Source: Candidatus Thorarchaeota archaeon (GTDB lineage: Archaea; Asgardarchaeota; Heimdallarchaeia; Hodarchaeales; Hodarchaeaceae). Taken from it: a stretch of DNA of 32,000 nucleotides. This document shows, piece after piece, positions 2,624 to 23,580 of this stretch. Within the stretch, counting starts at the first letter, position 1. Each line of letters starts with the position of its first letter. The notes beneath the pieces are model-generated. The model was not told the origin of the DNA. It was given only the letters and a program-made list of their open reading frames with translations, and made no database searches. The translations under genes were made by a program, and so were the position numbers. The stretch is taken from contig JBHLRO010000009.1 in NCBI GenBank assembly GCA_048882505.1, positions 60,001 through 92,000 on the forward strand, written 5' to 3'.

Positions 2624-3358
2624 GTGGTTGTCCGGGAGTTTTTGATCGTTCACGAGTATGGAACAGTGATCTACCACCAACGCTATTCAAAGTCATCACA
2701 GGATATTGTGCTACGTTCTGGGTTGATTAGTGCCCTTTATAACTTTGCCCAAGAGGTCGAACGGGACTCGATTGACGTTCTGCGAATGGAAAAAGTCTCC
2801 CTACTGTTTAAAAAAAGAGATCTCTTGATTTTCGTATTGTTCTTCGATTCGACGGTGAATCCGGAATGGTGTAAAAGGGAAATCGATATACTTGCCAACA
2901 ATTTTTACCTAGCGTTCCCTGATGTCCTTTGGAGTACTGAAATCGTAAATCTAACAAGATTTAAGTCCTTTGACATGGATTCCGATCGAATTCTCACAGC
3001 ATTAAACAGAAAGCTGGAATTAATCCTTTATTTGATCGAAGAAGGGATTATCACAGAAGAGGAGTATCAGGAATCGAATTTCCAAACTCTGGGGCAAATT
3101 GTGGGTAAACGTCTTTTGGATAGATTCCATAACCAGTTTTCTTATGTACTGGGACAAGGAAGCGAATTCACGTTTTCCCAGATCGATCTTCTTCTTGATC
3201 TCCTTAATGCGACACATATACAACGGCACGGATCAAAATATACGTTCGATTGCGCCCACTGCTTCCTGTGTGAAGACAAACAGGACTGTTTTTTCAGTGG
3301 CGTAATGACTCAAATACGAGCAATCCTTAATCTTGACCTAGAAACATTGTTTTTGTAG
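2624..3358 (+). CDS. N-terminal longin-like domain fused to a C-terminal V4R/Bet3(TRAPP)-like domain
   Basis: N-terminal pattern FLIVHEYGTVIY...LRSGLISALYNFAQEV...IDVLRM is typical of Asgard longin-like domains. The C-terminal part has FQTLGQIVGKRLLDRF and CAHCFLC-x5-CFFSG, resembling V4R. GTG start. Confidence 0.65.
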   Translation: MVVREFLIVHEYGTVIYHQRYSKSSQDIVLRSGLISALYNFAQEVERDSIDVLRMEKVSLLFKKRDLLIFVLFFDSTVNPEWCKREIDILANNFYLAFPDVLWSTEIVNLTRFKSFDMDSDRILTALNRKLELILYLIEEGIITEEEYQESNFQTLGQIVGKRLLDRFHNQFSYVLGQGSEFTFSQIDLLLDLLNATHIQRHGSKYTFDCAHCFLCEDKQDCFFSGVMTQIRAILNLDLETLFL

Positions 3359-3945: not shown

Positions 3946-4515
3946 ATGGTAAGGATTATGAGAAGTCATAACTATGAAGGCCCGCGCTATAAGATTATCG
4001 TTGTTGGGGACGGTGGAGTGGGAAAAACAGCCATTCTTGAGCGCTTACTTGGCAGGGCGTTTCATAGTACCTACAAACTGACGATTGGAGCCAATATTCT
4101 TACAAAACAGCTTATCTTTGATGGAACTACTTTCAAACTTCAGATTTGGGATCTTGCTGGACAGACTAGATTCACGATCGTGCGATCTACCTATTATTCT
4201 GGAGCTCATGCAGCGATACTCTGCTTTGACAAGAATTGGCCTCCTTCATTCGAAAGCTTGCCAACATGGAAGAACGAAGTGGAATCGCATCTAGGGAGAA
4301 AGATTCCTCTTCTTCTAATTGGAAACAAAAATGATCTTCCTTCTCAAATTACTCAAGATAAGATTGACGAGTACATAACGTCAGTTAATGCAAATCATCC
4401 GTGTACGATGCCATATCTCTCAACCTCTGCAAAAACTGGAAGCAACATGAGCCAAGTCCTCAAAACACTCGCTCAGCTTCTCACTAGCTACAAAACGGAT
4501 GTAGGCTCAAGATAA
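3946..4515 (+). CDS. Rab-like small GTPase
   Basis: G1 GDGGVGKT, G2 YKLTIG, G3 WDLAGQ, Rab-like RF...YYSGA, G4 NKND, G5 SAK. No C-terminal prenylation Cys. Confidence 0.95.
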   Translation: MVRIMRSHNYEGPRYKIIVVGDGGVGKTAILERLLGRAFHSTYKLTIGANILTKQLIFDGTTFKLQIWDLAGQTRFTIVRSTYYSGAHAAILCFDKNWPPSFESLPTWKNEVESHLGRKIPLLLIGNKNDLPSQITQDKIDEYITSVNANHPCTMPYLSTSAKTGSNMSQVLKTLAQLLTSYKTDVGSR

Positions 4516-4558
4516 CTTTAGTTTACCTTTGGTGAATGTAAACCTTTTTGAACGGCTA

Positions 4559-4575
4559 TTTTGTTGTTTTTTTTT
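4559..4575 (+). terminator. Possible archaeal oligo-T terminator after the Rab-like gene
   Basis: TTTTGTTGTTTTTTTTT (T9 at 4567-4575), about 45 nt after the stop codon. Confidence 0.35.
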
Positions 4576-4604
4576 GCAGTTAAGGATGCAGCTGTGGTTC
4601 AGAT

Positions 4605-5099
4605 ATGGGTAAGCTCGATAAGCTAAAAGATCGTATTCTAGCGGAATTTCCAGGCAAGATGGAGAAGGAAAATGTTCTCATTATGAGCTTCATTATGAAG
4701 GAAGTTGAACATGGAAAACAACCTCCAATAAAGGGGGATATAGAAAGCGCAATCAAAGAACTAATTTCTGACGGAATCTTTGAAAAGAAAGATGGACTGT
4801 TAATCCTAAGAAAAGAAGCTTTACAAGCGGAACAGGACGAGCTTGCACAGAAAGAGTCCAAAGAAGAATTTACGGTTTTTAATCCAATGAGCTACCCCCC
4901 AGATCAAGCACAAGTCCTCCTGGCTTTTGGCCAGGCGAAATACGAGAATCGGTCGGCTCTCATTATGGGAATCACGATGAAAGAACTCCAAAATGGAAAC
5001 AAACCTCCAAAAAGGGTTGAAATCGAGCAATCGATCAAAGCTTTGGTTAAGAGCGGGGCATTAGAATCCAAGGGGGAGATGCTAATTAGAAAAATCTAG
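4605..5099 (+). CDS. Hypothetical protein made of two ~60-aa repeats, each winged-helix-like
   Basis: Internal duplication LIM..MKE...G..PP....IE..IK.L...G..E.K...L separated by an acidic linker. The wHTH fold is inferred. Confidence 0.7.
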   Translation: MGKLDKLKDRILAEFPGKMEKENVLIMSFIMKEVEHGKQPPIKGDIESAIKELISDGIFEKKDGLLILRKEALQAEQDELAQKESKEEFTVFNPMSYPPDQAQVLLAFGQAKYENRSALIMGITMKELQNGNKPPKRVEIEQSIKALVKSGALESKGEMLIRKI

Positions 5100-5107
5100 T
5101 ACCTGAT

Positions 5108-6238
5108 TCATTCTGGCAAAATGAGAGGGGATGGACTCATCCTCGGATCCCTTCGGAGGAGAGCAATCCGGAACCCTAGAAAACTGGACTGACTATAACC
5201 AATGGGAGAGGGAATAGTAGAAGGAAGTTTTCGGAGCGTGGCGGCCAAAATTTCGGCACCAACGAGACGAGCACCGTATGCATCAGCGTATATTTCGTCC
5301 AAAAACCGTTTGTAACTCATATAAAAGGATAAACACCCCGATGCTGAGAAGCTGAATAGAGAAATCGATGCAAGTACTAGAAGAGATAGAGGGTCGTGTA
5401 AAAGAGTTTCATTGCGTATAGCGGCCATCGTATAAAGATTAACTCCATATATCACACAATAATAGCGAAACGTACGCAAAACGGTATCAAGAGAACCAAA
5501 AACGTAGTTTTTTCGTATGTGATGGTTCGCTAGATGCCCTTCCTCGTGACTCAATACAGCGATTAGTTCTTCGTCATCAAGTTTCCATTGGAAATAGCGG
5601 GACACCAAACAAATTCGTTTACGCCCCAGACTGGTCACCCCCGCAGAAAGGAAAAGCGATGCGGGCTGTATATCAGCAAATCGAAAATCGCTGAACAAAT
5701 GACTCTTCGGATGCTTCTGGACAATATGATCGATTATTTCAGGTTTAAGAGGTTCTCTAGCAGTTCGGAGGAGTTCTCCTTTGGATCGCATCGCGCGGAA
5801 GACAAGTAAACCTTGAATGATAAACGAAAAAAGAAGTCCAATTCCAAAATATACCCACAGTGGTGTCGATTCGTGAAGTAAAGGGTTTAAGACAAGACTG
5901 TATCCAACTCCAATGATGATCACCGAGTAAACCTGTTGGATTAAATACAGGAAAATATCCTGGATCGTAGGTTGGAAATGAAAATATGATGCGGATAGAG
6001 CAGCCTTTTTTAAGGTTCTAAAAGCCTGAAGATAAAACGTTAGCATAGATAAGAAAAGCAGCCCAGAAAAGACAATCAATGTCAGCAAAAATGTAGGTTC
6101 AGGGAGAAAAATACCGAATAGTTCGACTCCACCTACTATAAGAAGGGCGGGGAAAAAGAGATAAGTGATTATATGCACCCAGTCACTTAACGGTAAAAAT
6201 ATCCCATCATTTTCACGCGATAGTCTAGTTTGATCCAC
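5108..6238 (-). CDS. Membrane M48-family Zn metalloprotease (HtpX/Ste24-like)
   Basis: Several N-terminal TM segments, HEEGH (HExxH) and a downstream EIYADAYGA third-ligand motif. GTG start. Confidence 0.85.
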   Translation of the reverse strand: MDQTRLSRENDGIFLPLSDWVHIITYLFFPALLIVGGVELFGIFLPEPTFLLTLIVFSGLLFLSMLTFYLQAFRTLKKAALSASYFHFQPTIQDIFLYLIQQVYSVIIIGVGYSLVLNPLLHESTPLWVYFGIGLLFSFIIQGLLVFRAMRSKGELLRTAREPLKPEIIDHIVQKHPKSHLFSDFRFADIQPASLFLSAGVTSLGRKRICLVSRYFQWKLDDEELIAVLSHEEGHLANHHIRKNYVFGSLDTVLRTFRYYCVIYGVNLYTMAAIRNETLLHDPLSLLVLASISLFSFSASGCLSFYMSYKRFLDEIYADAYGARLVGAEILAATLRKLPSTIPSPIGYSQSSFLGFRIALLRRDPRMSPSPLILPE

Positions 6239-10797: not shown

Positions 10798-11844
10798 GTG
10801 ATGGTTCAAGAAAATTTCGCCCTGTTCGTTGAAGGCACAGATGTACGTTGGTCTTTTGGTAATCCAAGCGATGATTTCGTTGAAATCGTCTCTAATTTCC
10901 TAATGGGACTATCCTCATTAGGACAGGAATTTTTTGGAGAGGGTATTGCTTCAATAACGTTCGATCGAAGAAGATACAGTGGTATTAAGGCGAGTGAAAT
11001 CTTCATAGTATCATTGGAAGATAGATTCTTCCTCATTATCAGTGACCCGGCAGTTACTTTACTTTTGATAACAGCCAGTGGGGGAATTCCCTCTGAAATC
11101 AAGGATATTATGCGAGCTGTTCTAATCGGACAGGCCTCAATTCTATATTCCCGGGCAATTGTGGATGCAGATCCGGAAGCAAAAAGGCAGATCGATACTC
11201 ATTTTCAAGAGATTCTGCTAGATCTTAATGAACGTTTCCGCCATACACCTGTAGTAGGACCTTACGGGAGTCATTTTTCAATTTTAAACTTTGAAGAAGC
11301 GTTATTATTGCATTATTACCTTAGAAAACATGCAGAAAAACGGATAGCCGCCCCTGCAGGCCGAGTGATTATTGCCAATCTTGAAGGTTGGAAGATTCCT
11401 CTGGCTTATGGTACGGGTATGGACGAGCGTTCTGGAGTATGGGCTGGCTTTTTTGCAGCAATTATTGGATTTATCCAAACATTATTTGACTCGAAGCCTA
11501 AATATATAACCTTTGGGAGTACGGAGCTTCACAAGTTACGTTTTATTTATGGGGAGAAGCATTTTATGGCGTTAGATACGAGTATAGTGTCTGACTTGCT
11601 TTTACGTAAGGCTTTTCGTACAGAATTGTTCGGAATTAATTATGGTATTCTAAAGGACATTTCAAATGGTGTCAAATCTCTGATTATCGAGGAAATTCAA
11701 ACATATTCTGAAGATAAGTTGAATGAACTATCAGTGGAAACATTGATAGACACTTATGCAGGCGAGGATCAATTATTGGACCTGACGATAGATGAGAGGG
11801 TTTTAAAAATTTGGGGAAAACTTCTAATTAAATATCAGAAATAG
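10798..11844 (+). CDS. Asgard-type protein with two longin-like domains
   Basis: Two copies of a strand-strand-helix-strands pattern: FALFVEGTDVRW...SNFLMGLSSLGQEFFGEGIASITF and VIIANLEGWKIPL...AGFFAAIIGFIQTLFDSKPKYITF. ATG at 10801 is an alternative start. Confidence 0.55.
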   Translation: MMVQENFALFVEGTDVRWSFGNPSDDFVEIVSNFLMGLSSLGQEFFGEGIASITFDRRRYSGIKASEIFIVSLEDRFFLIISDPAVTLLLITASGGIPSEIKDIMRAVLIGQASILYSRAIVDADPEAKRQIDTHFQEILLDLNERFRHTPVVGPYGSHFSILNFEEALLLHYYLRKHAEKRIAAPAGRVIIANLEGWKIPLAYGTGMDERSGVWAGFFAAIIGFIQTLFDSKPKYITFGSTELHKLRFIYGEKHFMALDTSIVSDLLLRKAFRTELFGINYGILKDISNGVKSLIIEEIQTYSEDKLNELSVETLIDTYAGEDQLLDLTIDERVLKIWGKLLIKYQK

Positions 11845-11879: not shown

Positions 11880-12659
11880 ATGCGCGTTACTGAGCTTTTT
11901 GATTTAACAGGTACTCGAGGACTAGTGACGGGTGGTGCAACGGGAATTGGCTTTACTATGGCTCAAGGTTTAGTAGAAGCCGGCGCAGATGTAGCAATAT
12001 GCGGACGGGGCCGGCATGGTTCCCTTGAGGAGGCTTTGACAAAACTTTCTGAGTTTGGTACAGAAGTGATCGGTAAGAAATGTGATGTGAGTATTGAAGA
12101 TGATGTTAAACAAATGATTACCGAGCTAGCAGACCAGGGATTCAGTTTGAATACAGTAGTTAATAACGCTGGCATTTCTTGGGGATGTCCTTCAGAAAAA
12201 CTCCCTCTTAACGATTTTACCAAGGTCATTGCCGTAAATCTCACGGGAACATTCTTTGTTTCACGAGAAACAGCCAAAAAGTTCATGATACCTAACCAAT
12301 CCGGTTCAATCATCAATATTTCTAGTACATCGGGCTTTCTTGGAGGGGAAATAGGGATTGCTGGATATTCTGCAAGTAAAGCGGGTGTATTGGGATTAAC
12401 TCGACAATTAGCCATCGAATGGGTTATACATGGCATCAGGGTAAATGCCATCTGCCCAAGTTGGTTTCCATCTTATATGAGTCGCCATTTCACTGGAAAA
12501 GAATCGCCTGTTCGGAATGCCCTGATGGCTGAGAACCCCATGGGTCGTTTCGGGAACCCTTGGGAATTAAAGGGAGTGATTGTATTTCTTGCGTCAAAAG
12601 CTTCGAGTTATATCAATGGTGTTGCCATTCCTGTTGATGGAGGTTTATTGGCGAAATGA
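11880..12659 (+). CDS. Classical short-chain dehydrogenase/reductase (FabG/gluconate 5-dehydrogenase-like)
   Basis: TGGATGIG, NNAG, YSASK, GIRVNAICP and IPVDGG motifs. Confidence 0.93.
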   Translation: MRVTELFDLTGTRGLVTGGATGIGFTMAQGLVEAGADVAICGRGRHGSLEEALTKLSEFGTEVIGKKCDVSIEDDVKQMITELADQGFSLNTVVNNAGISWGCPSEKLPLNDFTKVIAVNLTGTFFVSRETAKKFMIPNQSGSIINISSTSGFLGGEIGIAGYSASKAGVLGLTRQLAIEWVIHGIRVNAICPSWFPSYMSRHFTGKESPVRNALMAENPMGRFGNPWELKGVIVFLASKASSYINGVAIPVDGGLLAK

Positions 12660-13453
12660 CCACAGTGCTCGACCTATTCAAACTTGACGGTCAATCCGCA
12701 CTAGTCACAGGGGGAGCAAAAGGCCTTGGAACGAAAATTAATGAGGGGCTATTAGAAGCTGGAGTTGAAAACCTGTTCTTCTGCGGACGAGGTAAACACG
12801 GGTCGCTCCACAAGGAGGAAGAGCGTTTGAGAGGTCTCTTCCCCCAGGCCGGAATCCAGGGTATTGAGTGTGATATTACTGACGAAAATCAGGTTGGGAA
12901 ATTAACCAATCGAATCAGAGAACTGGGATTTATGATTTCAATCCTAGTGAATTCAGCAGGTGCTACATGGGCTGCTCCTTCCGTTGATCAAACCCTCAAA
13001 ACATGGCACCGTGCCCTTGACGTGAATCTCACAGGAGCTTTCCTTGTAACACGTGATATAGCTAGAACCTTTATGATACCTGCGAGAAAGGGTAGTGTAA
13101 TTAACATCAGTTCAATCCTCGCCCTTGTTGGTAATGCTGAACTGGCCCAGGTGGGATATTCCGCCAGTAAAAGTGCTCTTTGTGGGCTTACGCGGCAATT
13201 GGCGATAGAATTCGCAGATCGTGGAATTCGAGTTAACGCAATTTTACCCAGCTTCGTAGAAGGTGATTCGATGGCTAAAGCATTCACACATCCTGAAAGT
13301 CCAGTTAGGAAAACCCTCTTGGAAATGATCCCACTGAAACGTTTTGCCCGTGCTGACGATCTAAAGGCAATTGTGTGCTTTCTAGCCTCCGAGGCTTCCG
13401 GTTATATCTCGGGACAAAATCTAGTATTAGATGGTGGCTATACTCTCCGTTGA
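12656..13453 (+). CDS. Classical short-chain dehydrogenase/reductase, tandem paralogue of the preceding gene
   Basis: TGGAKGLG, NSAG, YSASK, GIRVNAILP and LVLDGG motifs. ATGA overlap with the previous stop. Confidence 0.93.
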   Translation: MTTVLDLFKLDGQSALVTGGAKGLGTKINEGLLEAGVENLFFCGRGKHGSLHKEEERLRGLFPQAGIQGIECDITDENQVGKLTNRIRELGFMISILVNSAGATWAAPSVDQTLKTWHRALDVNLTGAFLVTRDIARTFMIPARKGSVINISSILALVGNAELAQVGYSASKSALCGLTRQLAIEFADRGIRVNAILPSFVEGDSMAKAFTHPESPVRKTLLEMIPLKRFARADDLKAIVCFLASEASGYISGQNLVLDGGYTLR

Positions 13454-13515: not shown

Positions 13516-14625
13516 TTGAATATGCTCGAACTCCTTGAGAAATATCCAGACGCACTAAGAAAACTCCGAAAACATGATCGCCCTCTCCTGGGTTATTTCA
13601 CGAATCGTATCCCGGTCGAAATCCTCCATGCTTTAGGAATAATTCCCATACGTATGCTAACCCATGGGTTCAAGAATCAAGGAGCCTCAGATCGATATAT
13701 CCAGACCTTTGGATGTGAATATTTATGTACAATAATGGATATCGGGTTAGCGGAAGGTTTTGACGTACTAGACGGAATTATATTTAGTACGGGAACTTGT
13801 GATTCACTTCAGAATGTTTCGGACATATGGAGGAAAGTTTTCCCCGCCCATTGGGCCATCAATTTAACATTCCCTGTAAATATAAAGGGTAATTTACCCG
13901 TCAAATTCTTGACAGCTGAATTTCAACGGTTTATCGAGACCGTAAGTCGGCATTTCAAACTAGATTATGCCCTTACACACCAAGGCGATCTCGATTTAAC
14001 ATCATCACTCAAAAAATATAATAAAAAACGTGAACTCCTCCGTGAACTTGCAACTTTGGTTTCAAATCGAAATCTTGCATACCAAGCGTTTGCGAAATAT
14101 TCGCTTCTGGGAGATATTATACCAGTGGAGCAATTCGTCTCATTTCTCCAGGAGAAAATGGAGGATGAAAAACACTACCCCCCAGTACAGATTAGTTCAC
14201 CCAGGCTATTGATAACTGGAGGAATGGGATTCGACAATTATCAGCTTTGGCAACTTCCAGAATTTGATCACCTGGTTGCAGATGACTTTTCGTTTGGAAC
14301 AAGAAATTTCAATTTCAACATTCCGCCGGGGGCGTCGCTCGAAACCTTTGTTAAATCCTATCTAGATCGAGTTCCAGATCCTACCGCCTATGATTTAGAT
14401 CGCAGAGAATCACACCTCACAAATCTGATCCGAAAACACAAGATTGATGGTGTAGTATTGCTTGGAACAAAGTGGTGTGATCCGGACGCTTTTGAATTCG
14501 TTCCTCTAATGAATATATTAAAGGAAAATGGGGTACCTTTTATAAGTATCGAGACGAGTTCCGATCTTGCAAACTTGCAGCAGATCAAAACGCGCATGAG
14601 GGCCTTCATTGAAATGTTGACTTGA
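13516..14625 (+). CDS. 2-hydroxyacyl-CoA dehydratase / benzoyl-CoA reductase family subunit (HgdB/BcrC-like)
   Basis: PVEILHALG, FGCEY, TCDSLQN, VADD and DGVVLLGTKWCDP motifs, ending QIKTRMRAFIEM. Confidence 0.88.
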   Translation: MNMLELLEKYPDALRKLRKHDRPLLGYFTNRIPVEILHALGIIPIRMLTHGFKNQGASDRYIQTFGCEYLCTIMDIGLAEGFDVLDGIIFSTGTCDSLQNVSDIWRKVFPAHWAINLTFPVNIKGNLPVKFLTAEFQRFIETVSRHFKLDYALTHQGDLDLTSSLKKYNKKRELLRELATLVSNRNLAYQAFAKYSLLGDIIPVEQFVSFLQEKMEDEKHYPPVQISSPRLLITGGMGFDNYQLWQLPEFDHLVADDFSFGTRNFNFNIPPGASLETFVKSYLDRVPDPTAYDLDRRESHLTNLIRKHKIDGVVLLGTKWCDPDAFEFVPLMNILKENGVPFISIETSSDLANLQQIKTRMRAFIEMLT

Positions 14626-14648
14626 TGGCACTCCTAGGAGGAAATGAT

Positions 14649-15911
14649 ATGAGCTCGAATGACAAAAAACGGGTTTATCGCCCCTTAAAAAGCCTTCAAA
14701 GTGTAAAAAACCATATGGCCATGTATTATTTCCAAAGCAAGAATCCATATCTTCACGATGAGGGGAAAAAAGTCGCGTGGGTGACCTCAGGAGGCCCTGT
14801 TGAATTTCTCATTGCCATGAACATTATTCCGCTTTATCCTGAGCAATATGGTGCGATTGCAGGGAGTGCCAAAGATTCTACGCGATTGGTTCAGGTAGCA
14901 GAAGCGCATGGTTACAGCCCCGATCTTTGTTCCTATGCCAGAACCTCATTTGGAAGTGTTTATTCTCCTGATCCTCCCACTCCTCTCTCAGAGATTGATG
15001 GTGCTGGTGGGCTCCAAAAGCCAGATATGTTAATTTGTGGTAATAATATCTGTGGAACCGTACTTAAGTGGTATCAAGACATCGCACGTCACTGGAACAT
15101 CCCCATGTTTCTATTTGATACACCTCCCCTGGCTAATGAGACAGTTCCATCATATTACCTAGAATATGTAATCCAACAACTCGAAAATTATGTCAATTTT
15201 TTGGAAATTCAGATGGGGAATAAAATGGATTCAGAAAAACTCGAAGAAGCCTTTCTATTCTCCAGACAAGCGGTGGAACTATGGAGTACAATTCTGGAGC
15301 TGTGTACAAACAAACCAAGCCCCTTGAACTGCGCTGATAGGTTCTTACTTATGGCCCCCGTTGTAGCGCAGCGCGGAACCAGAGAGATCGTACCAATTTA
15401 TGAGGAGGTGTTAGCTGAAGTCCAGAATCGAGTTGATCATAACCTGGGAGCGATTACGGTGCCAGAAAGGTATCGTCTCCTCTGGGATAACATCCCAATT
15501 TGGTTCAATATCTTTTCGTTCTTTAATAGTCTTGCAGCAAAAGGAGTGGTCTTTCCTGCCGACACATACACTAACGCTTGGAGACAAGCCTTCAGCAAGG
15601 AATCAGGAGACGTAATTCGTGATGCAGCGTTAGCATATTCTACAATATATCTTAATAAGACACTTCAACATAAAATTGATTTGATTGAAGAACTAGCTAC
15701 CCGTTTTCACTGTGATGGTGTCCTTTACCATTCGATGAGGAGTTGTAAGCGTTACAGTTTGGGTCAACCCATCACACGGCGCGAAGTGACCATGAAAACA
15801 GGATTGAACGGAGTCCTAATAGAGGGTGACATGTGTGACACTCGTTCTTTTTCTGAGGAGCAGGCCTGGACAAGGATTGAAGCCTTATTGGAACTAATCC
15901 AAAATTCCTAG
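14649..15911 (+). CDS. 2-hydroxyacyl-CoA dehydratase / benzoyl-CoA reductase family subunit (HgdA/BcrB-like)
   Basis: GYSPDLCSY, KPDMLICGNNICGTVLKWY, RLLWDNIPIW, DGVLYHSMRSCK and IEGDMCD motifs. ATG 14649 chosen because AGGAGG (14636-14641) lies 7 nt upstream. Confidence 0.88.
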   Translation: MSSNDKKRVYRPLKSLQSVKNHMAMYYFQSKNPYLHDEGKKVAWVTSGGPVEFLIAMNIIPLYPEQYGAIAGSAKDSTRLVQVAEAHGYSPDLCSYARTSFGSVYSPDPPTPLSEIDGAGGLQKPDMLICGNNICGTVLKWYQDIARHWNIPMFLFDTPPLANETVPSYYLEYVIQQLENYVNFLEIQMGNKMDSEKLEEAFLFSRQAVELWSTILELCTNKPSPLNCADRFLLMAPVVAQRGTREIVPIYEEVLAEVQNRVDHNLGAITVPERYRLLWDNIPIWFNIFSFFNSLAAKGVVFPADTYTNAWRQAFSKESGDVIRDAALAYSTIYLNKTLQHKIDLIEELATRFHCDGVLYHSMRSCKRYSLGQPITRREVTMKTGLNGVLIEGDMCDTRSFSEEQAWTRIEALLELIQNS

Positions 15912-15920
15912 ATAAATAAC

Positions 15921-16499
15921 CTAATCGTCCACAACAATTGCGGCAAAATTGAAATCTGACCATATTCGCTCCGCGAGCGTACGGAATGCTTTGGTTACGT
16001 TTTCTCCAGTAAGAGCTGAAGTTTCCACATACTCAACCTTCCCAAATTCGGGAGCCTGTAGTTTTTCCCTGATGAACTTTTCAGCGAAATCCGCTGAAAC
16101 TGTATTTTCTTCCGTAGAGCGAAGATCGATTTTGTTACCCAATACAACTACTGCAATCTGATCTGATCCAGAATGTTGAATCAACTCTTCCTTCCATGTT
16201 TTCAGGTTATTCAGGGATCCTTCATTTGTCACATCAAAGCATAGTAGCGCGCCCACCGCCCGGCGATAGTACATGGTCCGGATCTGTTTGAAGGAAGGTT
16301 GTCCTGCTAAATCCCAAATTTGGAAGCGCAATTCCTTCGTTCCACCTTCAGTTTCTAGGTAGACAATCTTTGATACAAAATCTGATCCCAACGTAGGAAG
16401 ATAATCTGTTCCAAATCCTTTCCCAATAAAATCGTTACGAAGGCTTGTTTTACCCACGCCCCCATCGCCTATTAATACGACCTTCGCCAATAACGCCAT
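15921..16499 (-). CDS. Rab-like small GTPase
   Basis: G1 GDGGVGKT, G2 YLPTLG, G3 WDLAGQ, MYYRRA, G4 NKID, G5 SAL. No C-terminal Cys. AAGGAGA lies upstream on the minus strand. Confidence 0.95.
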   Translation of the reverse strand: MALLAKVVLIGDGGVGKTSLRNDFIGKGFGTDYLPTLGSDFVSKIVYLETEGGTKELRFQIWDLAGQPSFKQIRTMYYRRAVGALLCFDVTNEGSLNNLKTWKEELIQHSGSDQIAVVVLGNKIDLRSTEENTVSADFAEKFIREKLQAPEFGKVEYVETSALTGENVTKAFRTLAERIWSDFNFAAIVVDD

Positions 16500-16967
16500 A
16501 ATCGAATCAGATTCTCCTTAGTTGCTTCATTTTCTTGGCCTAGCAATTCTTGGCTGATTGACTCTGGAAAAAACAAACATTAACGGATAAATCAAGAAAT
16601 TCCCTAGAGCACATATGGAATTCTAGTATTTAATAGCACTAGGATTTAAAGGAATAAAAAACTATTCATTCCAATTCGTGTACTGTGGCATTTAGGGATT
16701 TCTTCATATCTTTCCTCTCTATTCATGGAAAATGACAATAGAGGGCTTTTTTGTAAGGGAATTATATCATTTAATCCGTTATTCCTAGAAACGTCTAAAT
16801 CAAGGAGTTTTTACACAAGAAGAAACTTCCATGGCAATAAAACCCTCAATCGATTTTCCAATAACAAAGATCAGTCAATTTTTTTGGTCTAGACACTATC
16901 ACTACTTTTGGATTTCAAATTGGAGAATTCTTCACCTCACTGGAAGCGATCCGCACAAAGAAAGACT

Positions 16968-19900
16968 TTATATATCAAAGGGAATAATAATCTTCAGCAA
17001 AGAAGTGCTACCCACCCATAAAGCTTCATATACGTCTTCTGGAGGAATTTTTAGCAGGTTAAGCATTGCTCGTTTGGCATCATCGTACAGAATTGGATTA
17101 TAGGATCTTTGACCTTTGTCTCGCACAATTCGATCAAATTTGTTCAAATCAGATATGCCATTGCTCGAGGTTTCCAGAGACGTTGCCTGAAAGATATAAA
17201 GACGCTTTAAAGCATTTATTGCTGCTTTAGAGAACTGCATTGCCCTTTCTTCTTTAATTTGGGCATCAATACTAATTAGGCGGACGGGATCAATAGTAAA
17301 TTGTTGCAACAGCGTCAACGGAATCAAACCATCAATTATATTACGGATATAGGGGCCTACGAGCTGTTCGTCCACAATTCCTACGTCTTCAAGATAAATT
17401 TTCTCTTCTAAGAGGCGAACCGCCTTAAAGAATATACCTCGAATGAATTTTGTGGGTTTGCGTCCCAAAAATACAAAGATTCGGAATGTGGGCGATGCAG
17501 CAATTAAGATCTGAATCTTATGTTGTTCAATCAAACTTAAACGGAACACCCGATCGTCTAACCGATCAGAGCTAGAATTGGATGATTCTTCGATCTGTTC
17601 AACAAATTGTGATTGGAATGACTCCAAAAAATCGGACATACCAACGGAAAGTCCACTTAACGCAACGTTCAGGGACTCATCCCGGCGATAAATCGTATTG
17701 GTTATATCAAAAAGGGGAATTCCCGCTTCAGTTGTCACCAAGATTGTATAGATATTCGAGATGGCAGACAGTATCTCTTCTATATCACGGGTTTTCTTGA
17801 TTCTTTTACGATTCCATCTTTGCAGGACAATACCACCAAAAACGAGCAAAAATCCAACAAAAACCGTTCCGAGAACTGCTCCTGCAAGTTCAGCCAAAGT
17901 GAATCCGAAGATGAAAATATTCAGGGACGCAAATTGATAATCTTCTAGCGGAAAGAATCGACTAACTCCTGATGATTCTTCTGAAGCTTCAATATGCCAT
18001 TCCAACGACCCATATCCTGGTAACGTCACGGTGAGAGTAAATAAACTTCCATTGAAGTTAAGTTGAGCTATTTCAAGGCCTGCTCCGATCCCTGCAAAAA
18101 CGCCCCTAAAAGGTTTTATTTCATAGTGTACATAAACTTCAAAAGAAGATAGATTGCCTCCCCAATCCGTGACATTCGCCCAAAACTGAACTGTAGTATC
18201 ATTTAAGCGTGTAACGTTCGCAGAATGAATTGTCGGAGTCCATTTGTCTGCTATTGATATGGAATCCACATGTTGAGACGGTTCATAATATCCTGCCAAG
18301 ACTCCAGCATCATACAGCACAATGGTATATGTATAGGTAGCTATCCCCTCAAAATGAACCTTAAGACTCAAGTGGGTCATATTGGATTCCATTGAAGCTT
18401 CAATTACCTCCCATTCTCTGGTATCGTTATTGTAGATCGAAATATTTGCCGCATGGTCATTAAATGGATCATTAACTGTCATCCATATTGTGGCGTTTCC
18501 TGCCTCTCCACTATTGTATTCGAATCCATATTCCAAGGCAGTCACAGGAACAAAATCCGATGTACGTCCTTGAATCAAGGCCGTAGAATTCGAATTTCCA
18601 CCTTTATCATATATGACAAATCGATATTCATACAAGGTGTCGGGGATCACATAAATGTCAAAAGTATAATGAGAAGTGTTATAGTCCATGGGGAATGTCG
18701 AATTTAACCACTGTGATCCAATAAGCTGATTTATTGTTATACCCGCCGATTCAACCAATCCAAATGGATCCGATGCTTCAACCCAAAAGAATAGATGAAC
18801 TGCTGTATGGTTTTCTAGCTCTTGCTCCATATCATAACCAATGAATTCAGGAGGTGTAAGATCTATAATAAATATCGCCTCCCAATCGGTGGTTTTGGAA
18901 TTTCCAAATACATCTATTGCTGAAAGTCTATAGGTGAAGGCGTCTCCAGGCTCAAACAATCGCTGAATTGAATCAGAGATTGTGATAGTATAGATATTCA
19001 GAGACCCGTTGGGCTTTAATGGAACCATATAATTTGTGAGAAAAATGAACTCAAGGGTAACTGGGGCATCACTATCAAGGCCGCTGCCATAAGGTCCTTC
19101 AAAAACTTCAGCCCAAACTGAAACCGTTCCATTTTGAAATTCATCAATATTCCACCTGTTTATTTTCGGAGCTGCGTTGTCTTCAACAGTAATTGAGCGA
19201 ACCAAGGATCCTGGATTACCAGCATCATCCTCAGTCCATACTTTGAATGTCACGTCATCCCCAACGAGAAATTGATAGGTGTAAACGTGGTAAAAGACAT
19301 CTTGAGTCATTGTATATGTATTGGTAACAGAATTTCTAGTGATGTTCAGGTAGAAGGTGTTCGTAACATATTGGGAGGCGCCATAAACATCTTCGGCCCA
19401 AGCCCGTATGGTGATTTCAGCATCATTTATGGTTGAGTTCTCAATTATGAACTGGACGCCAGGTGGAACGATATCAGTCAAAATCAACTTTTTATATTGG
19501 TTTGGAGTAGGAATGAAGATGTTGTTGGCTGTATCTTCTGCTGTGGCATAATAAATAACTTCCCTCGCATTATAGACAAAATTGGAAACAACCGAAGAGA
19601 AATAAGTTTGATTAATCTGAACCAGGGAATGTCCAATCCAGGATCCAGTACTGTTCTCATATACTATCACCGCGATTGTATTATTGCTTGGCCAATCGGT
19701 TGCAGTGGCATTGAATTCTATCGAACCATTGCCAAAATCTTTTGCAGAGAGGGTGACATTAGGAAACGCATTATCTGAAACATTAAAGGGACCGGGACGT
19801 ACCACTCCAAGATTTCCAGCAAGATCGCTTGCATTTATGGAGTATTCAATGGAGTCACCCAAATTATATGTATCCTCGTAATAGAAAGGGCCGCCGCTCC

Positions 19901-21818
19901 CTATGTCCACCATTTCATATTTACTATATTGTCCCCCATTTATACTGATCGCGATAAACACGCTGCTGGCATTCAGTCCGCTTTGGTATATCGAACTTTC
20001 GTTAATTATGACTTGCCAAGAGACTAATCCCTCCGAATTAGTTGGTATGGGGTTCCAAATCAGAGGGGGACGAGTGTCAGTCACCGTAAAATTGTATGTT
20101 TTTATTGTTGAGGGAAATAATCTGGATCCATTCTCGTTTCCCACGGTATCGTTTACTGAATAGATTGTATAATTCAGGAAGTTACCCGTATACTCATTCG
20201 TTTGATAAACCCAATAACCTGACCCATTAAGAGTCATTGTTTTAAGGCTACCATTGACTGATAGAACCACTGAATCTATGCCACTGGAATCAGAAACATT
20301 TGCGTACCACTCAATAGTACCCTCTCCATAATCGGTGACATTAAATTTGTTAATTACAGGGGCACTAGGATCACTAAGGAGGAATGTTTGGGTTTCAGTA
20401 ACAACTGCGTTTCCTCCCAAATCTATGGCGATTATATTGTAGGTGATGCTTATATTGGTCTCTTCACCATTCAAAGAATCAAGAGCTGTGTCATTAAAAT
20501 AGGTTATTCCCGATTGGAAAACCATCGTGAAGTTTTGGGCTGGAATTTTGACAGACTGTGAAGTTAAATTAAAAGCTGTGAGATTCAAATATACATTAAA
20601 ATTACCGTCATCAATTACATCAGCATAAAACGTATCTGAGCTCTTTTCGAAGTGGACATGGGAAATTTCGGGTGGCAGAGTGTCCAAATACGAGGATAAT
20701 TGAATATAAAACGTAAAATTGGCAAGACGATGGTAAGTTCGGTTCGGGATGATCTCAACATTTAATAACTGCTCAATTGTGTTATTAAAATCGGCGGTAA
20801 TATCGTATTTTCCCCAGGGAACGTTATAGAAGGTGGCATCCCCTTGCAAGTTCGTTGTTTGGTTCAACGTAATGAAACTATCTGCCAATGTAACGTTCGC
20901 ACCTTGTACATCTTTATTGTTTAAATCTCTTACATTCACAGTCACACTGGCATTTCCGCTGATATCGTCGTAGAGAATCCAGTGAACAGTTCGGTTCCAT
21001 AATTCCCATCCTTTCGAGGTAAGGCTGGTTCCATTACTAGCACCCAAGAAGACCCTTCGTTCTGCAGAAGAATTTAAGAGCCAATCTTTACCTCCTTTCT
21101 CTAATGTGATAAGAGACCTGGCAAACCGCTCGCCCCCAGAGGTTGAAGGCGCAATAAGTCCAGTAAGATTGGACCCCGCAGGAAGCCCTTGGGGAAAAGG
21201 TCCTTTAATATAAGCCGAATCGGCAAACGGGTCATTATATACTATAAGAGAGCCTGCTGTAAAATTACTGGTAATGTAATGGGAAGTATCCACCACATCT
21301 AGCACCGTATTGTCGTTTTTGGTGCCAGATGATGATCCAAGCGAGAATAAATTCCAGGTATCAACTTCCATTGTCAATACCGGGATCGATACAGTTTCTA
21401 AGGTGGTTAGAAAGGAGATATCAACAGAATCAGATATAATAATTGCATCAATACCGTTAAGCGAATATGAATCGTTATCATTATGCAGAGTTACGTTGAA
21501 GTTTAAGTTTACATTCAAATAATCAATAAAAGGTTGATCGAAGGTTGGATCCAGATTCGATGTATCATTCATAATGAAGAGAATGTTTGGTTGCTGAAAT
21601 GACTGAAGAGAAAAACGGGGGTAAGAAATCGGAGATGTTAACCTTTGTTGATCCTCATTTGGGGCAAGGGAAGAAATCTGGACGAAATCCTGAGCTTCAG
21701 ATTCAGAACCACTAAAGACAAGGGCAGTTGGGATTGAAAGGGAGGATGCAATGAAAATGACTAGGATGAGCAAAGAGAACCATTGACCAGAGATTTGTCG
21801 GATACTCAATTTTAACAA
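16968..21818 (-). CDS. Large single-pass surface protein: signal/anchor, class-I-GATase-like domain, transthyretin-like beta-sandwich, nine Ig-like repeats, TM helix, cytoplasmic longin-like domain
   Basis: Hydrophobic N-terminus and many N-x-S/T sequons. D-x-x-P-P/x-hydrophobic repeat starts. TM segment LAGAVLGTVFVGFLLVFGGIVL followed by QRWNRKRIKK. C-terminal IYTILVTTEAGIPLF...SGLSVGMSDFLESF. Confidence 0.8.
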   Translation of the reverse strand: MLKLSIRQISGQWFSLLILVIFIASSLSIPTALVFSGSESEAQDFVQISSLAPNEDQQRLTSPISYPRFSLQSFQQPNILFIMNDTSNLDPTFDQPFIDYLNVNLNFNVTLHNDNDSYSLNGIDAIIISDSVDISFLTTLETVSIPVLTMEVDTWNLFSLGSSSGTKNDNTVLDVVDTSHYITSNFTAGSLIVYNDPFADSAYIKGPFPQGLPAGSNLTGLIAPSTSGGERFARSLITLEKGGKDWLLNSSAERRVFLGASNGTSLTSKGWELWNRTVHWILYDDISGNASVTVNVRDLNNKDVQGANVTLADSFITLNQTTNLQGDATFYNVPWGKYDITADFNNTIEQLLNVEIIPNRTYHRLANFTFYIQLSSYLDTLPPEISHVHFEKSSDTFYADVIDDGNFNVYLNLTAFNLTSQSVKIPAQNFTMVFQSGITYFNDTALDSLNGEETNISITYNIIAIDLGGNAVVTETQTFLLSDPSAPVINKFNVTDYGEGTIEWYANVSDSSGIDSVVLSVNGSLKTMTLNGSGYWVYQTNEYTGNFLNYTIYSVNDTVGNENGSRLFPSTIKTYNFTVTDTRPPLIWNPIPTNSEGLVSWQVIINESSIYQSGLNASSVFIAISINGGQYSKYEMVDIGSGGPFYYEDTYNLGDSIEYSINASDLAGNLGVVRPGPFNVSDNAFPNVTLSAKDFGNGSIEFNATATDWPSNNTIAVIVYENSTGSWIGHSLVQINQTYFSSVVSNFVYNAREVIYYATAEDTANNIFIPTPNQYKKLILTDIVPPGVQFIIENSTINDAEITIRAWAEDVYGASQYVTNTFYLNITRNSVTNTYTMTQDVFYHVYTYQFLVGDDVTFKVWTEDDAGNPGSLVRSITVEDNAAPKINRWNIDEFQNGTVSVWAEVFEGPYGSGLDSDAPVTLEFIFLTNYMVPLKPNGSLNIYTITISDSIQRLFEPGDAFTYRLSAIDVFGNSKTTDWEAIFIIDLTPPEFIGYDMEQELENHTAVHLFFWVEASDPFGLVESAGITINQLIGSQWLNSTFPMDYNTSHYTFDIYVIPDTLYEYRFVIYDKGGNSNSTALIQGRTSDFVPVTALEYGFEYNSGEAGNATIWMTVNDPFNDHAANISIYNNDTREWEVIEASMESNMTHLSLKVHFEGIATYTYTIVLYDAGVLAGYYEPSQHVDSISIADKWTPTIHSANVTRLNDTTVQFWANVTDWGGNLSSFEVYVHYEIKPFRGVFAGIGAGLEIAQLNFNGSLFTLTVTLPGYGSLEWHIEASEESSGVSRFFPLEDYQFASLNIFIFGFTLAELAGAVLGTVFVGFLLVFGGIVLQRWNRKRIKKTRDIEEILSAISNIYTILVTTEAGIPLFDITNTIYRRDESLNVALSGLSVGMSDFLESFQSQFVEQIEESSNSSSDRLDDRVFRLSLIEQHKIQILIAASPTFRIFVFLGRKPTKFIRGIFFKAVRLLEEKIYLEDVGIVDEQLVGPYIRNIIDGLIPLTLLQQFTIDPVRLISIDAQIKEERAMQFSKAAINALKRLYIFQATSLETSSNGISDLNKFDRIVRDKGQRSYNPILYDDAKRAMLNLLKIPPEDVYEALWVGSTSLLKIIIPFDI
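17940..20684 (-). repeat. Nine tandem ~100-aa Ig-like beta-sandwich repeats (diverged at DNA level)
   Basis: Repeat starts DTLPPEI (20684), DPSAPVI (20372), DTRPPLI (20078), DNAFPNV (19775), DIVPPGV (19475), DNAAPKI (19181), DLTPPEF (18863), DFVPVTA (18557) and DKWTPTI (18248). Spacing is 98-106 codons. Confidence 0.8.
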
Positions 21819-22529
21819 TCCTGATAGGAGAGGGAATTATGGTCTATTTAGATTGGGTACTTGAAGGAAGTTCCCAAATGCTGAATTTTCTTTCACGATC
21901 AACTATGCCAGTATAATTGGAATGATCTATATGAACATCGGAACCCTTGAGATATAATTCTCTCATCGTATCCTGGCGTTATTTTGGACTGTGTTAATAC
22001 TCCGCATTAATCAGCTAATAACTTGTCTCGAACCTAGATATTACCAGTCAGTCTAATAAATTTAACCAAATCGTTGTGAATATTCGTATGCCTTGAATTT
22101 CGGAAATGAATTTGGTTTTAGCCTTTTTTCTCTAGATATGATCGGATACGAGTAGAATTTTTTGTTGATTCCATTTCTAACGCTTCTGCCAACTAAGGCC
22201 GCATTTTTTAACTTTAAAAAATTCACCGTATTTTATCGGAATTTCCGAACGTTTTACCTAGTAAATTTCTCAGAATCTCCCACAAATCAAGTTAACAATT
22301 GTACAAATCGAAAAAACATGTTTTCATGGCTTTATGGTACTCTCGATTCCTATCGAATTCATTCTAAAGAGAAAAAGCAAAATATTATTGTCCATACTCT
22401 GAGAGACATCCGATCCGATTGATAACGACATATATAATGTTGCCAGTTATTTCAGGAGGTCAGGAAAGGTAAATGAACATCGTGATTCATTATCAGTCCG
22501 TACCATTAATAGAAGATAGAGCCAGTTTT

Positions 22530-22535
22530 AGGAGA
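22530..22535 (+). promoter_or_regulatory. Shine-Dalgarno site of the methyltransferase gene
   Basis: AGGAGA lies 7 nt upstream of ATG 22543. Confidence 0.5.
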
Positions 22536-22542
22536 AACCCGC

Positions 22543-23580
22543 ATGGTATCCATATCAACACCTAAAACCTCACAAGATATTGAAATTCTCTTGAATTTTT
22601 ATCTAGCTTCGGCTGCGGTGGGCGTAGCTCTTGAGCTGGGGTTATTTTGGCAGCTTCGAGATAGTTCTCTGAAGTTAACCGAGATATCGGATAAATTCAA
22701 AATCCCAGAGGATCGATGTCGGACGTGGCTTGCGTTATTGATCAAATTAGGATTAGTGACATTGCAAGGGGAACGATACTTTCCCTCTGGTGCCTCCAAG
22801 CAGGCCATTACGGATGTATATAGCCATGAAACGTGGTCATTTTTAGCCCAAGAAGCTCGAGAACAGCAGCCAGCAGTGATAGATTTAGCGTTACACTTCT
22901 CCCAGGCATCAATGTGGGAAGCTTATTCAAAGGAGGCCCCTAATTATGTCACTCTAATGAAAAACGATGCTCAGCGAGCAGAGCGTTTCACACGGATGTT
23001 GTATGAACTCCATACACCGTTGGCAGAATTTTTAGCCAAAAACCTAAATCTATCAGGTGTCAACATGTTAATGGATCTTGGTGGTGGATCAGGAGTTATT
23101 TCTATTGAGCTGATGAAACAAAACCGCGATTTGAATGTAATTGTGGTTGATATTGCCAATGTTTGCACCGCAGGAAGGAGAATTGCCAATGAAACTAGTG
23201 TATCTGATCGTATCACATATTTTGAAGCTGATTTTTTGCATGATGAATTACCACGGGATATAGACCTCGTCCTTGAGTGTGATGTTGGTGTATACACATT
23301 GGATCTTTTTAAAAAGGTGCTAAATTCCCTGAATACGAATGGACGTTTTATCATTGTTTCCAATACAGATGAATTAGGGGCCTGGTTACTAAAACCAAAG
23401 GAATCCGTTTCAATTTTGCCTTGTATGTTTGCTTTTTCATCATCATTGCGAGATCCCAAATTTAAACCCCCTACGATCAATCATGTGAAAAATCTGCTCG
23501 AAGAGGCAGGATTTCAGGATATCAATGTCCAAATTGAAGATGATGGGAGAGTTATAATTGAAGGAATGAAGGGAGGCTAA
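22543..23580 (+). CDS. SAM-dependent O-methyltransferase family 2 (ASMT/HIOMT-like, with dimerisation wHTH)
   Basis: N-terminal AAVGVALELGLF...L..LGLV dimerisation domain, LMDLGGGSG SAM motif I, and VD and ADFL motifs. Confidence 0.9.
   Translation: MVSISTPKTSQDIEILLNFYLASAAVGVALELGLFWQLRDSSLKLTEISDKFKIPEDRCRTWLALLIKLGLVTLQGERYFPSGASKQAITDVYSHETWSFLAQEAREQQPAVIDLALHFSQASMWEAYSKEAPNYVTLMKNDAQRAERFTRMLYELHTPLAEFLAKNLNLSGVNMLMDLGGGSGVISIELMKQNRDLNVIVVDIANVCTAGRRIANETSVSDRITYFEADFLHDELPRDIDLVLECDVGVYTLDLFKKVLNSLNTNGRFIIVSNTDELGAWLLKPKESVSILPCMFAFSSSLRDPKFKPPTINHVKNLLEEAGFQDINVQIEDDGRVIIEGMKGG

Follow-up and report, generated by a model that had tools for sequence, protein, structure and literature searches.

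Longin and roadblock domains serve as platforms for small GTPases in TRAPP, Mon1-Ccz1, CPLANE, Ragulator, SRX-SRbeta and MglB (PMC3747258). In the MglA-MglB system, the actinobacterial conservon and the Group 1 Rup operons, the gene of a small GTPase is paired with a roadblock or longin gene, and the bacterial Group 1 Rup operons include a transmembrane protein with a conserved domain (Wuichet and Sogaard-Andersen 2014, PMC4316618). A pairing of this kind is found in the stretch of Candidatus Thorarchaeota archaeon DNA analyzed here, which comprises 32,000 nucleotides of contig JBHLRO010000009.1 (assembly GCA_048882505.1, contig positions 60,001–92,000) and is referred to as the window. A gene encoding a giant putative surface receptor with a C-terminal tail of predicted longin fold (P0001, positions 16968–21818 of the window, minus strand) is followed on the same strand by the gene of a Rab-like small GTPase (P0002, 15921–16499). 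The pairing of a longin or roadblock protein with a small GTPase is of a known kind; its receptor-borne form, in the Heimdall group of Asgard archaea, appears to be new. We give about even chances to the interpretation that the receptor is a longin platform tethered to the membrane and that the Rab-like GTPase, which has no anchor of its own, is its cognate partner.

The locus shares the fold of the regulator and a Rab-like partner with the eukaryotic guanine nucleotide exchange factors (GEFs) that act on Rab GTPases and are built from longin domains, namely TRAPP Bet5/Trs23, Mon1-Ccz1, Fuzzy-Inturned/CPLANE and BLOC-3. It differs from them in the fusion of the longin domain to a transmembrane surface protein, and a GEF role of the tail would be a putative one. 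Those GEFs combine two or three longins in a heterodimer or multi-subunit core, whereas the tail has a single longin and a helical domain within its 282 residues and is unlike the tri-longin layout of three tandem longins per subunit in a heterodimer. Compared with TRAPP, no Bet3-type partner gene is present at the receptor locus. In SRX-SRbeta, a longin domain likewise docks a small GTPase at a membrane, and the tail matches the fold of SRX with Z scores of 7.3–8.2. However, the roles are reversed: the SR GTPase is anchored and its longin protein is soluble, whereas here the longin domain would be anchored and the GTPase soluble. Furthermore, the GTPase is Arf/SR-beta-like in that system and Rab-like in the window. 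In contrast to the MglA-MglB and Rup pairs, the longin domain here forms the predicted C-terminal cytoplasmic tail of a giant, putatively glycosylated surface protein. MglA belongs to a family distinct from the Rab/Rup-type GTPases (PMC4316618). Rup1 lacks the glutamine of the DxxGQ motif and MglA differs in G3, whereas the GTPase of the window has a standard DxxGQ with its glutamine. The window pair is not of the MglA/MglB module type, in which an MglA-type GTPase goes with a soluble roadblock dimer of MglB, as the GTPase has standard Ras/Rab motifs and Rabs as its nearest solved relatives, and the longin domain is predicted to be membrane-anchored. Neither a histidine kinase gene nor a cyclic di-GMP output gene is conserved at the receptor locus.

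Tran et al. 2024 (PMC10933270) reported on roadblock, longin and Rab-like proteins of Asgard archaea. An operon of LAMTOR1-like, Rab-like and DENN genes, together with many fusions of longin to two-component domains, was described by Liu et al. (bioRxiv 10.1101/2020.10.19.343400). The present pair is drawn from the same toolkit, and Roadblock2, Roadblock3 and the Loki Roadblock-Longin match the tail with Z scores of 6.9–8.3. However, the proteins in these two studies are soluble or fused to a GTPase, whereas here the longin domain is borne by a receptor and the gene layout pairs a GTPase with a candidate regulator. In MK-D1, such genes are as a rule found outside operons, so that partners are difficult to assign from layout (Tran et al., PMC10933270). 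No mention of a receptor-borne longin architecture was found in the texts of Tran et al. or Liu et al. Likewise, a full-text literature search, from which subscription journals were mostly missing and which is not proof of absence, returned no account of a Rab-like GTPase paired with a surface receptor that has a longin tail in the cytoplasm.

The cytoplasmic tail of the receptor comprises 282 residues, close to the approximately 285 proposed in an earlier note on this DNA. Its structure was predicted with AlphaFold2 from a 43-row alignment of tail relatives, with a predicted local distance difference test score (pLDDT) of 79.9 and a predicted template modeling score of 0.78. This model superseded a single-sequence prediction that was all-helical, had a pLDDT of 34 and was unusable. 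In the model, a juxtamembrane helix is followed by elements in the order beta-beta-alpha-beta-beta-beta-alpha-alpha and then by a helical domain. Secondary structure assignment with DSSP yielded strands at tail residues 22–29, 34–39, 92–98, 101–107 and 111–117, and helices at residues 47–78, 123–139 and 150–164. The five strands form an antiparallel sheet, and the elements follow each other in the order expected of a longin. The predicted longin-fold domain covers residues ~1354–1504 of the receptor (tail residues 20–170; 17307–17759, minus strand), and the C-terminal domain, formed mostly of confidently modeled helices, covers residues 1505–1616 (16971–17306, minus strand).

Structure searches relate the modeled tail to longin and roadblock proteins. 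The top rows of a Foldseek search against the PDB were exclusively roadblock and longin proteins, with E values of about 1e-3. In comparisons with VIA on the full PDB, the best match was Sec22b (Z 10.2, root-mean-square deviation 3.3, 126/128 residues), and synbindin scored 9.7–9.8. Sigma-adaptins, Ykt6 and Fuzzy fell within 9.1–9.7 (Fuzzy 9.1), MglB, SRX and Asgard Roadblock3 reached 8.2–8.3, and Mon1-Ccz1 8.0. In a VIA search of 48,161 PDB chains that was independent of Foldseek, longin and roadblock proteins accounted for 48 of the 50 top rows, with 19 at a Z score of at least 8. Longin matches span tail residues 20–170, whereas roadblock matches span residues 17–144 only; the roadblock order is alpha-beta-beta-alpha-beta-beta-beta and lacks the C-terminal helices. 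The earlier note had described the tail as longin-like and had asked for a fold search; at the fold level, the model confirms this assignment, whereas membership of a longin family at the sequence level is not established. The matches do not discriminate among roles, as longins of the GEF, GTPase-activating protein (GAP), SNARE and adaptor types lie within about two Z units of each other.

Relatives of the tail are rare, with only 57 found among 1.84 billion representative sequences in a full HMMER scan. The tail region is C-terminal in all 57 representatives, the longest of which has 2550 residues, and none of them is a fused, Rosetta-stone form of tail and GTPase. The helical domain is kept together with the longin domain across the family. 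An Atlas feature search with the helical domain gave no usable match; its structural neighbors, an Atlas cluster bearing HTH_47 and AFDB rows named as PCI or ArsR proteins, are leads only. Among neighbors in AFDB and the ESM Atlas, the whole two-domain module is located at the C-terminus of other uncharacterized Asgard proteins, and the longin part occurs also in bacterial OmpA-bearing proteins.

The gene downstream of the receptor encodes a 192-residue protein that matches Pfam Ras (E 1.4e-43). Its best match in the PDB is a Thorarchaeota Rab (6.6e-33), followed by Rab2A, Rab8A, Rab10, Ypt31 and Rab7. The motifs G1 to G5 are intact (GDGGVGKT, PT, WDLAGQ, GNKIDL and ETSA(L/K)), and the catalytic Gln67 of DxxGQ is invariant in 23 members of the GTPase clade described below. 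The C-terminus (...AAIVVDD) contains no cysteine prenylation motif of the CC, CxC or CaaX type, and a terminal cysteine is missing from 22 of the 23 clade members, the remaining one ending in ...HYC. Judged by its motifs, the protein is a Rab-like GTPase, apparently intact and without a lipid anchor, in agreement with the complete, unprenylated Rab-like protein of the earlier note.

The properties of the tail and the GTPase bear on the possibility that the tail is an MglB-like GAP, which would switch the GTPase off at the position of the receptor and thereby keep the active form away from that site, in a polarity-type logic. MglB and the Asgard roadblock structures match the tail with Z scores of 8.2–8.3, and prokaryotic roadblock genes are classically paired with those of small GTPases (PMC4316618). 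Arg112 of the tail is nearly invariant in the family. In the eukaryotic longin GAPs FLCN, NPRL2 and SMCR8, an arginine of the longin domain is used. However, Arg112 is located in a beta-strand of the modeled tail, the GTPase has a catalytic glutamine of its own and is Rab-like rather than MglA-like, and the alignment of the tail with longin proteins is both better and longer than that with roadblock proteins. We regard a GAP function as quite improbable.

The linkage of the two genes was studied with a profile of the tail, which was searched over 83 genomes of the class; the loci were fetched, and tails and GTPases were marked with hidden Markov models (HMMs). The tail family is present in 17 of the 21 genomes of one genus-level group, in one to seven copies each, and is rare elsewhere in the class. 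Of the distinct receptor genes, which number about 29, about 17 are directly followed by a Ras-family gene on the same strand and three to four more are directly preceded by a GTPase gene, giving about 20 adjacent pairs in all. The downstream gaps range from -11 to 470 bp; those of the relatives extend from -11 to about 290 bp, and 470 bp occurs only in the closest orthologue. At L003 the two genes overlap, by 11 bp if ORFs are considered and by 8 bp in the gene calls. In three public homologues, a Ras-family gene follows immediately, with gaps between the called genes of 173, -8 and 27 bp, and two distant homologues examined for context have no adjacent Ras-family gene. Upstream of a 2180-residue paralogue in a closed genome (locus L006), two Ras-family genes are positioned immediately next to the receptor gene, in entirely different flanks. 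As there are about 56 Ras-family matches in the 4.3 Mb genome, adjacency would be expected by chance in about 1% of cases per neighboring slot. The linkage of receptor and GTPase is not due to chance, and it is frequent but not obligatory.

The adjacent GTPases are of one kind. A maximum-likelihood tree was calculated for 54 GTPases, of which 23 are adjacent to receptors, 30 are further Ras paralogues from the genome of the window, and one is a relative's GTPase without an adjacent receptor. The 23 adjacent sequences all group in a single clade (support 100/100), apart from the 30 further paralogues. The survey of receptor-Rab synteny that the earlier note had proposed thus found a GTPase next to about 20 of about 29 receptors, and the GTPases belong to one clade. 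With a clade-level threshold of about 244 bits, which was set after a small gap in the scores had been seen, a profile of the clade finds members only in the same genus-level group. About 26 of the 34 GTPases at this level adjoin a gene of the receptor family; for three of the 26 that gene is an open reading frame (ORF) cut by the contig end and 56–64% identical to the 2180-residue receptor. Within the genus-level group, a strong tail and a clade GTPase occur together in 16 genomes, and both are missing from four. The exceptions are a 74%-complete genome with the GTPase only and a genome with a tail and a fragment of the GTPase at a contig end.

The tree of the tails contains four well-supported paralogue clades, which largely match subclades of the GTPase. 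Receptors of 2200–2450 residues are associated with one GTPase subclade, those in tandem arrays with another, and receptors of 1610–1627 and 715 residues with a third; the fourth comprises the window pair and its orthologue, which is 90% identical. The correspondence is imperfect, as, for example, a GTPase of the first subclade adjoins a tandem-array receptor at locus L042. Such a pattern is expected if the pair was usually duplicated as a unit, and the two genes have largely been co-duplicated. The main support for linkage comes from the paralogue clades, from the occurrence of both gene orders and from the differences between flanks.

These data are relevant to the possibility that the two proteins have no direct functional link, that the receptor is an adhesin or envelope protein whose tail dimerizes or binds another partner, and that adjacency is inherited synteny. 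The pairing is confined to one genus-level group, the divergent tail genes at loci L005, L007 and L059 have no adjacent GTPase, other neighbors of the window pair (HGD-D and SDR genes, see below) are also syntenic in the closest relatives, and GTPase genes of MK-D1 are generally outside operons with longin or roadblock genes (PMC10933270). However, adjacency is kept across the four paralogue clades, at 35–45% tail identity, with different flanks and in both gene orders, and only one of many GTPase clades is involved. Matching duplications would not be expected from inherited synteny alone, and we consider the absence of a functional link very unlikely.

The receptor ORF is open throughout its 1616 codons and begins with TTG; the database copy of the protein has 1613 residues and starts three codons later. 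Fourteen full-length homologues of 1476–1846 residues are present in metagenome-assembled genomes with Heimdall- or Hod-type names. The size of the protein and its N-terminal signal peptide or signal anchor, both noted earlier, agree with the ORF and with a hydropathy scan that places the hydrophobic segment at residues 14–36 (21711–21779, minus strand). A single transmembrane helix was likewise found where it had been proposed (near 17825–17925), at residues 1302–1332 (17823–17915, minus strand), directly followed by the basic stop-transfer sequence QRWNRKRIKK. The ectodomain contains 54 N-x-S/T sequons, compared with 19.9 expected from its composition, whereas the tail contains one, compared with 1.4 expected, and the same asymmetry is present in 19 homologues. 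The ectodomain is acidic and poor in lysine and arginine (4%), compared with 12.8% in the tail. The sequon excess on one side of the membrane helix and its absence from the other support an ectodomain outside and a tail inside, in line with a glycosylated ectodomain combined with a cytoplasmic tail, as the earlier note had assumed for the latter.

Across the family the tail is constant and the ectodomain variable, in proteins of 374–2550 residues with different head types. This arrangement is compatible with a family of receptors or adhesins that have an intracellular output in common and, to the same degree, with a common handle through which a GTPase system would manage diverse surface proteins. 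In the latter case, the GTPase would act on the receptor, governing its delivery, turnover, clustering or polar placement, and the tail would be a sorting or adaptor handle comparable to the longin SNAREs and the sigma and zeta subunits of adaptors. Sec22b, Ykt6, VAMP7 and the sigma and zeta subunits of AP and COPI are among the top structural matches, with Z scores of 9–10; a tail kept constant beneath such varied ectodomains is what a common handling signal would look like, and the linkage evidence fits this explanation equally well. However, it still requires the predicted contact between tail and GTPase, or a bridging factor, and no conserved coat gene, SNARE motif or adaptor gene is present in the neighborhoods examined. 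We consider the handle function rather unlikely.

Several observations weigh against a longin platform that works together with the linked GTPase. The first helix of the longin domain is modeled poorly (pLDDT 45–59 at tail residues 41–90), although confidence is good for the sheet and for the helices that follow. The tail has no match at threshold to longin or roadblock families in Pfam, NCBIfam or the sequences of the PDB, against which its profile gave zero matches, the longin families considered including Pfam Longin, Sybindin, Sedlin_N, Clat_adaptor_s and Fuz_longin_1; of the 43 family members, one matches Fuz_longin_1 with an E value of 3.6e-4, none reaches the curated cut-off, and one matches Robl_LC7 (PF03259) with an E value of 0.12. 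For about nine of the approximately 29 receptor genes, no GTPase gene is adjacent; several of the nine lie on short contigs, but the set also includes the family's most divergent members and, at L045, a complete gene of 1612 residues from a closed genome. Conversely, the clade GTPases without an adjoining receptor gene stand alone or beside a tail remnant of 29 residues. The counts are not independent, because the genomes are close kin. In the window, co-transcription of the pair is doubtful because of the 468-bp gap and its T-runs.

This spacer (16500–16967, minus strand) has 34% GC, is AT-rich and contains stop codons in all frames. Three-frame translation and tblastn detected no ORF in it and no remnant of a GTPase or a tail, the matches being at chance level. 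A scan for sigma-70 promoters and intrinsic terminators is uninformative for an archaeon. The earlier note had reported the distance of 468 bp correctly, together with a Shine-Dalgarno sequence for the GTPase; the candidate is AAGGAG, located 14 nucleotides ahead of the ATG, a long distance for such an element.

In the membrane-tethered platform that we favor, the receptor would sit in the cell membrane with its large, variable, N-glycosylated ectodomain outside, and the longin-fold domain and the small helical domain would lie just inside the membrane. The longin domain would bind the GTPase encoded alongside it, and the bound GTPase would be held or switched at the membrane site of the receptor. 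Since longin and roadblock domains are established GTPase platforms, direct docking of the GTPase is the most economical assumption. Because the GTPase appears to lack a lipid anchor, binding to the tail would bring it to the membrane of the receptor. A prediction of the complex of tail and GTPase scored 0.30, against a mark of 0.32, and is used as evidence neither way. Recruitment with activation, either GEF-like or by docking of the GTP state, is favored over inactivation on weak grounds, and we infer both the direction of regulation and any coupling to events at the ectodomain. Of the receptor-GEF interpretation in the earlier note, the architecture, the fold and the linkage are supported, whereas exchange activity and signal relay stay proposals; the tail might instead be a GAP, an effector site or a plain anchor. 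It is possible, but unlikely, that in these archaea, closely related to eukaryotes, a diversified family of single-pass surface receptors carries its own longin exchange factor, so that a contact or ligand event directly loads a dedicated Rab-like GTPase at that location.

The remaining parts of the receptor are less well defined. The head domain (residues ~70–285; 20964–21611, minus strand) has no match in Pfam or NCBIfam. The earlier proposal that it is GATase-like was not confirmed: an Atlas feature search returned unnamed bacterial proteins (0.92) and a weak match to ThuA (0.81), which are leads only. The proposed transthyretin-like domain corresponds to a match of residues 291–360 (20739–20948, minus strand) to CarboxypepD_reg (PF13620; E 3.2e-5), which at 24.6 bits remains below the cut-off of 32.3 bits; homologues of the receptor are named as CarboxypepD_reg-type in their source databases. 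Nine repeats of about 100 residues, the number given in the earlier note, occupy residues 379–~1290 (17949–20684, minus strand). Most of them end in D-x-x-G-N, and the motif recurs at spacings of 91–108 residues. An HMM of the repeat detects nine units, compared with zero to two in shuffled controls, with E values that are inflated, as the receptor itself was the source of the HMM. The repeats have no match at threshold in Pfam or NCBIfam and are presumed to be Ig-like in fold. The 2180–2450-residue paralogues (L006:5001-11543, L065:1-5280 and L066:1-5152) have a head unlike that of the window protein, with a weak match to DUF2341, and their alignment contains S-T-D-G-G-x-T-W-like motifs that are, by eye, reminiscent of Asp-box repeats. 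With the window receptor, these paralogues share a CarboxypepD_reg-like region and D-x-x-G-N repeats.

Several loci depart from a single receptor-GTPase pair. Tandem arrays of the order receptor-receptor-GTPase(-GTPase) occur at L042, L046 and L048 (G054:C69, G053:C152 and G052:C224), for example with receptors of 1907 and 1619 residues followed by two GTPases. A clade GTPase copy with four in-frame stops (G062:C12:149208-149750) lies beside a 2192-residue receptor and two intact copies. At locus L063 (genome G056), the clade GTPase (4185–4739, minus strand) is preceded by an ORF of 85 residues (4899–5156, minus strand) in which no more than the final 29 residues of the tail are left (E 3.7e-8). 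In genome G065, a 28-residue fragment with stops (C39:215087-215173) is located about 1.6 kb upstream of a clade GTPase (216827–217390). Both remnants look like decayed receptor genes next to which the GTPase was retained. In the genome of the window itself, a search found one strong copy of the tail and one distant relative outside the window, on contig C33. The latter is a giant ORF of 1539 residues cut at the contig start (C33:78-4697, plus strand), the C-terminal domain of which gives a weak match (E 1.5e-4) to the longin portion of the tail profile, at model positions 6–192; no Ras-family gene is present within 5 kb of it.

Convergent to the GTPase gene are two genes for HGD-D (2-hydroxyacyl-CoA dehydratase D-component) and two SDR genes (13516–15911 and 11880–13453, plus strand). 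Synteny of these genes extends to the closest relatives (L002, L003 and L004) but not to the surroundings of other receptor paralogues, and the block is therefore probably unrelated to the pair. A 348-residue ORF (10798–11844, plus strand), earlier called a tandem-longin protein, has no match in Pfam or NCBIfam; its counterpart at L002 and L004 is a gene of 354–355 residues located beyond the SDR and HGD-D genes. Alignment of the tail with this protein and with another proposed longin protein of the window (2624–3358) gave hhalign probabilities of at most 1%, and kinship among the proposed longin proteins of the window is therefore unsupported at the sequence level. A second Ras-family GTPase of the window (3946–4515, plus strand; 189 residues) is placed by the tree outside the receptor-linked clade. 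About 450 bp upstream of the receptor gene, L002 (5330–5518, plus strand) and L004 (5355–5549, plus strand) contain a conserved ORF of 62–64 residues with four cysteines (CxxC ... C ... C), for which no counterpart was seen at positions 21819–22560 of the window.

Asgard genomes encode dozens of Ras-superfamily GTPases and many longin and roadblock proteins, and which regulator belongs to which GTPase is largely obscure. Here, gene layout, phylogeny and co-duplication all point to a single GTPase clade and a single family of longin-bearing proteins, and thus to a defined pair that is open to expression and assay. Binding of the GTPase by the tail, if it occurs, would explain how a Rab-like protein without an anchor reaches an archaeal membrane. 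A surface receptor would then itself carry a longin-GTPase platform, which was found described for neither eukaryotes nor Asgard archaea in the literature searched. If, in addition, the receptor carries its own exchange factor, it would be a receptor-GEF encoded by one gene, in which membrane targeting is solved without prenylation, and a forerunner of eukaryotic signaling from receptors to Rab and Arf GTPases.

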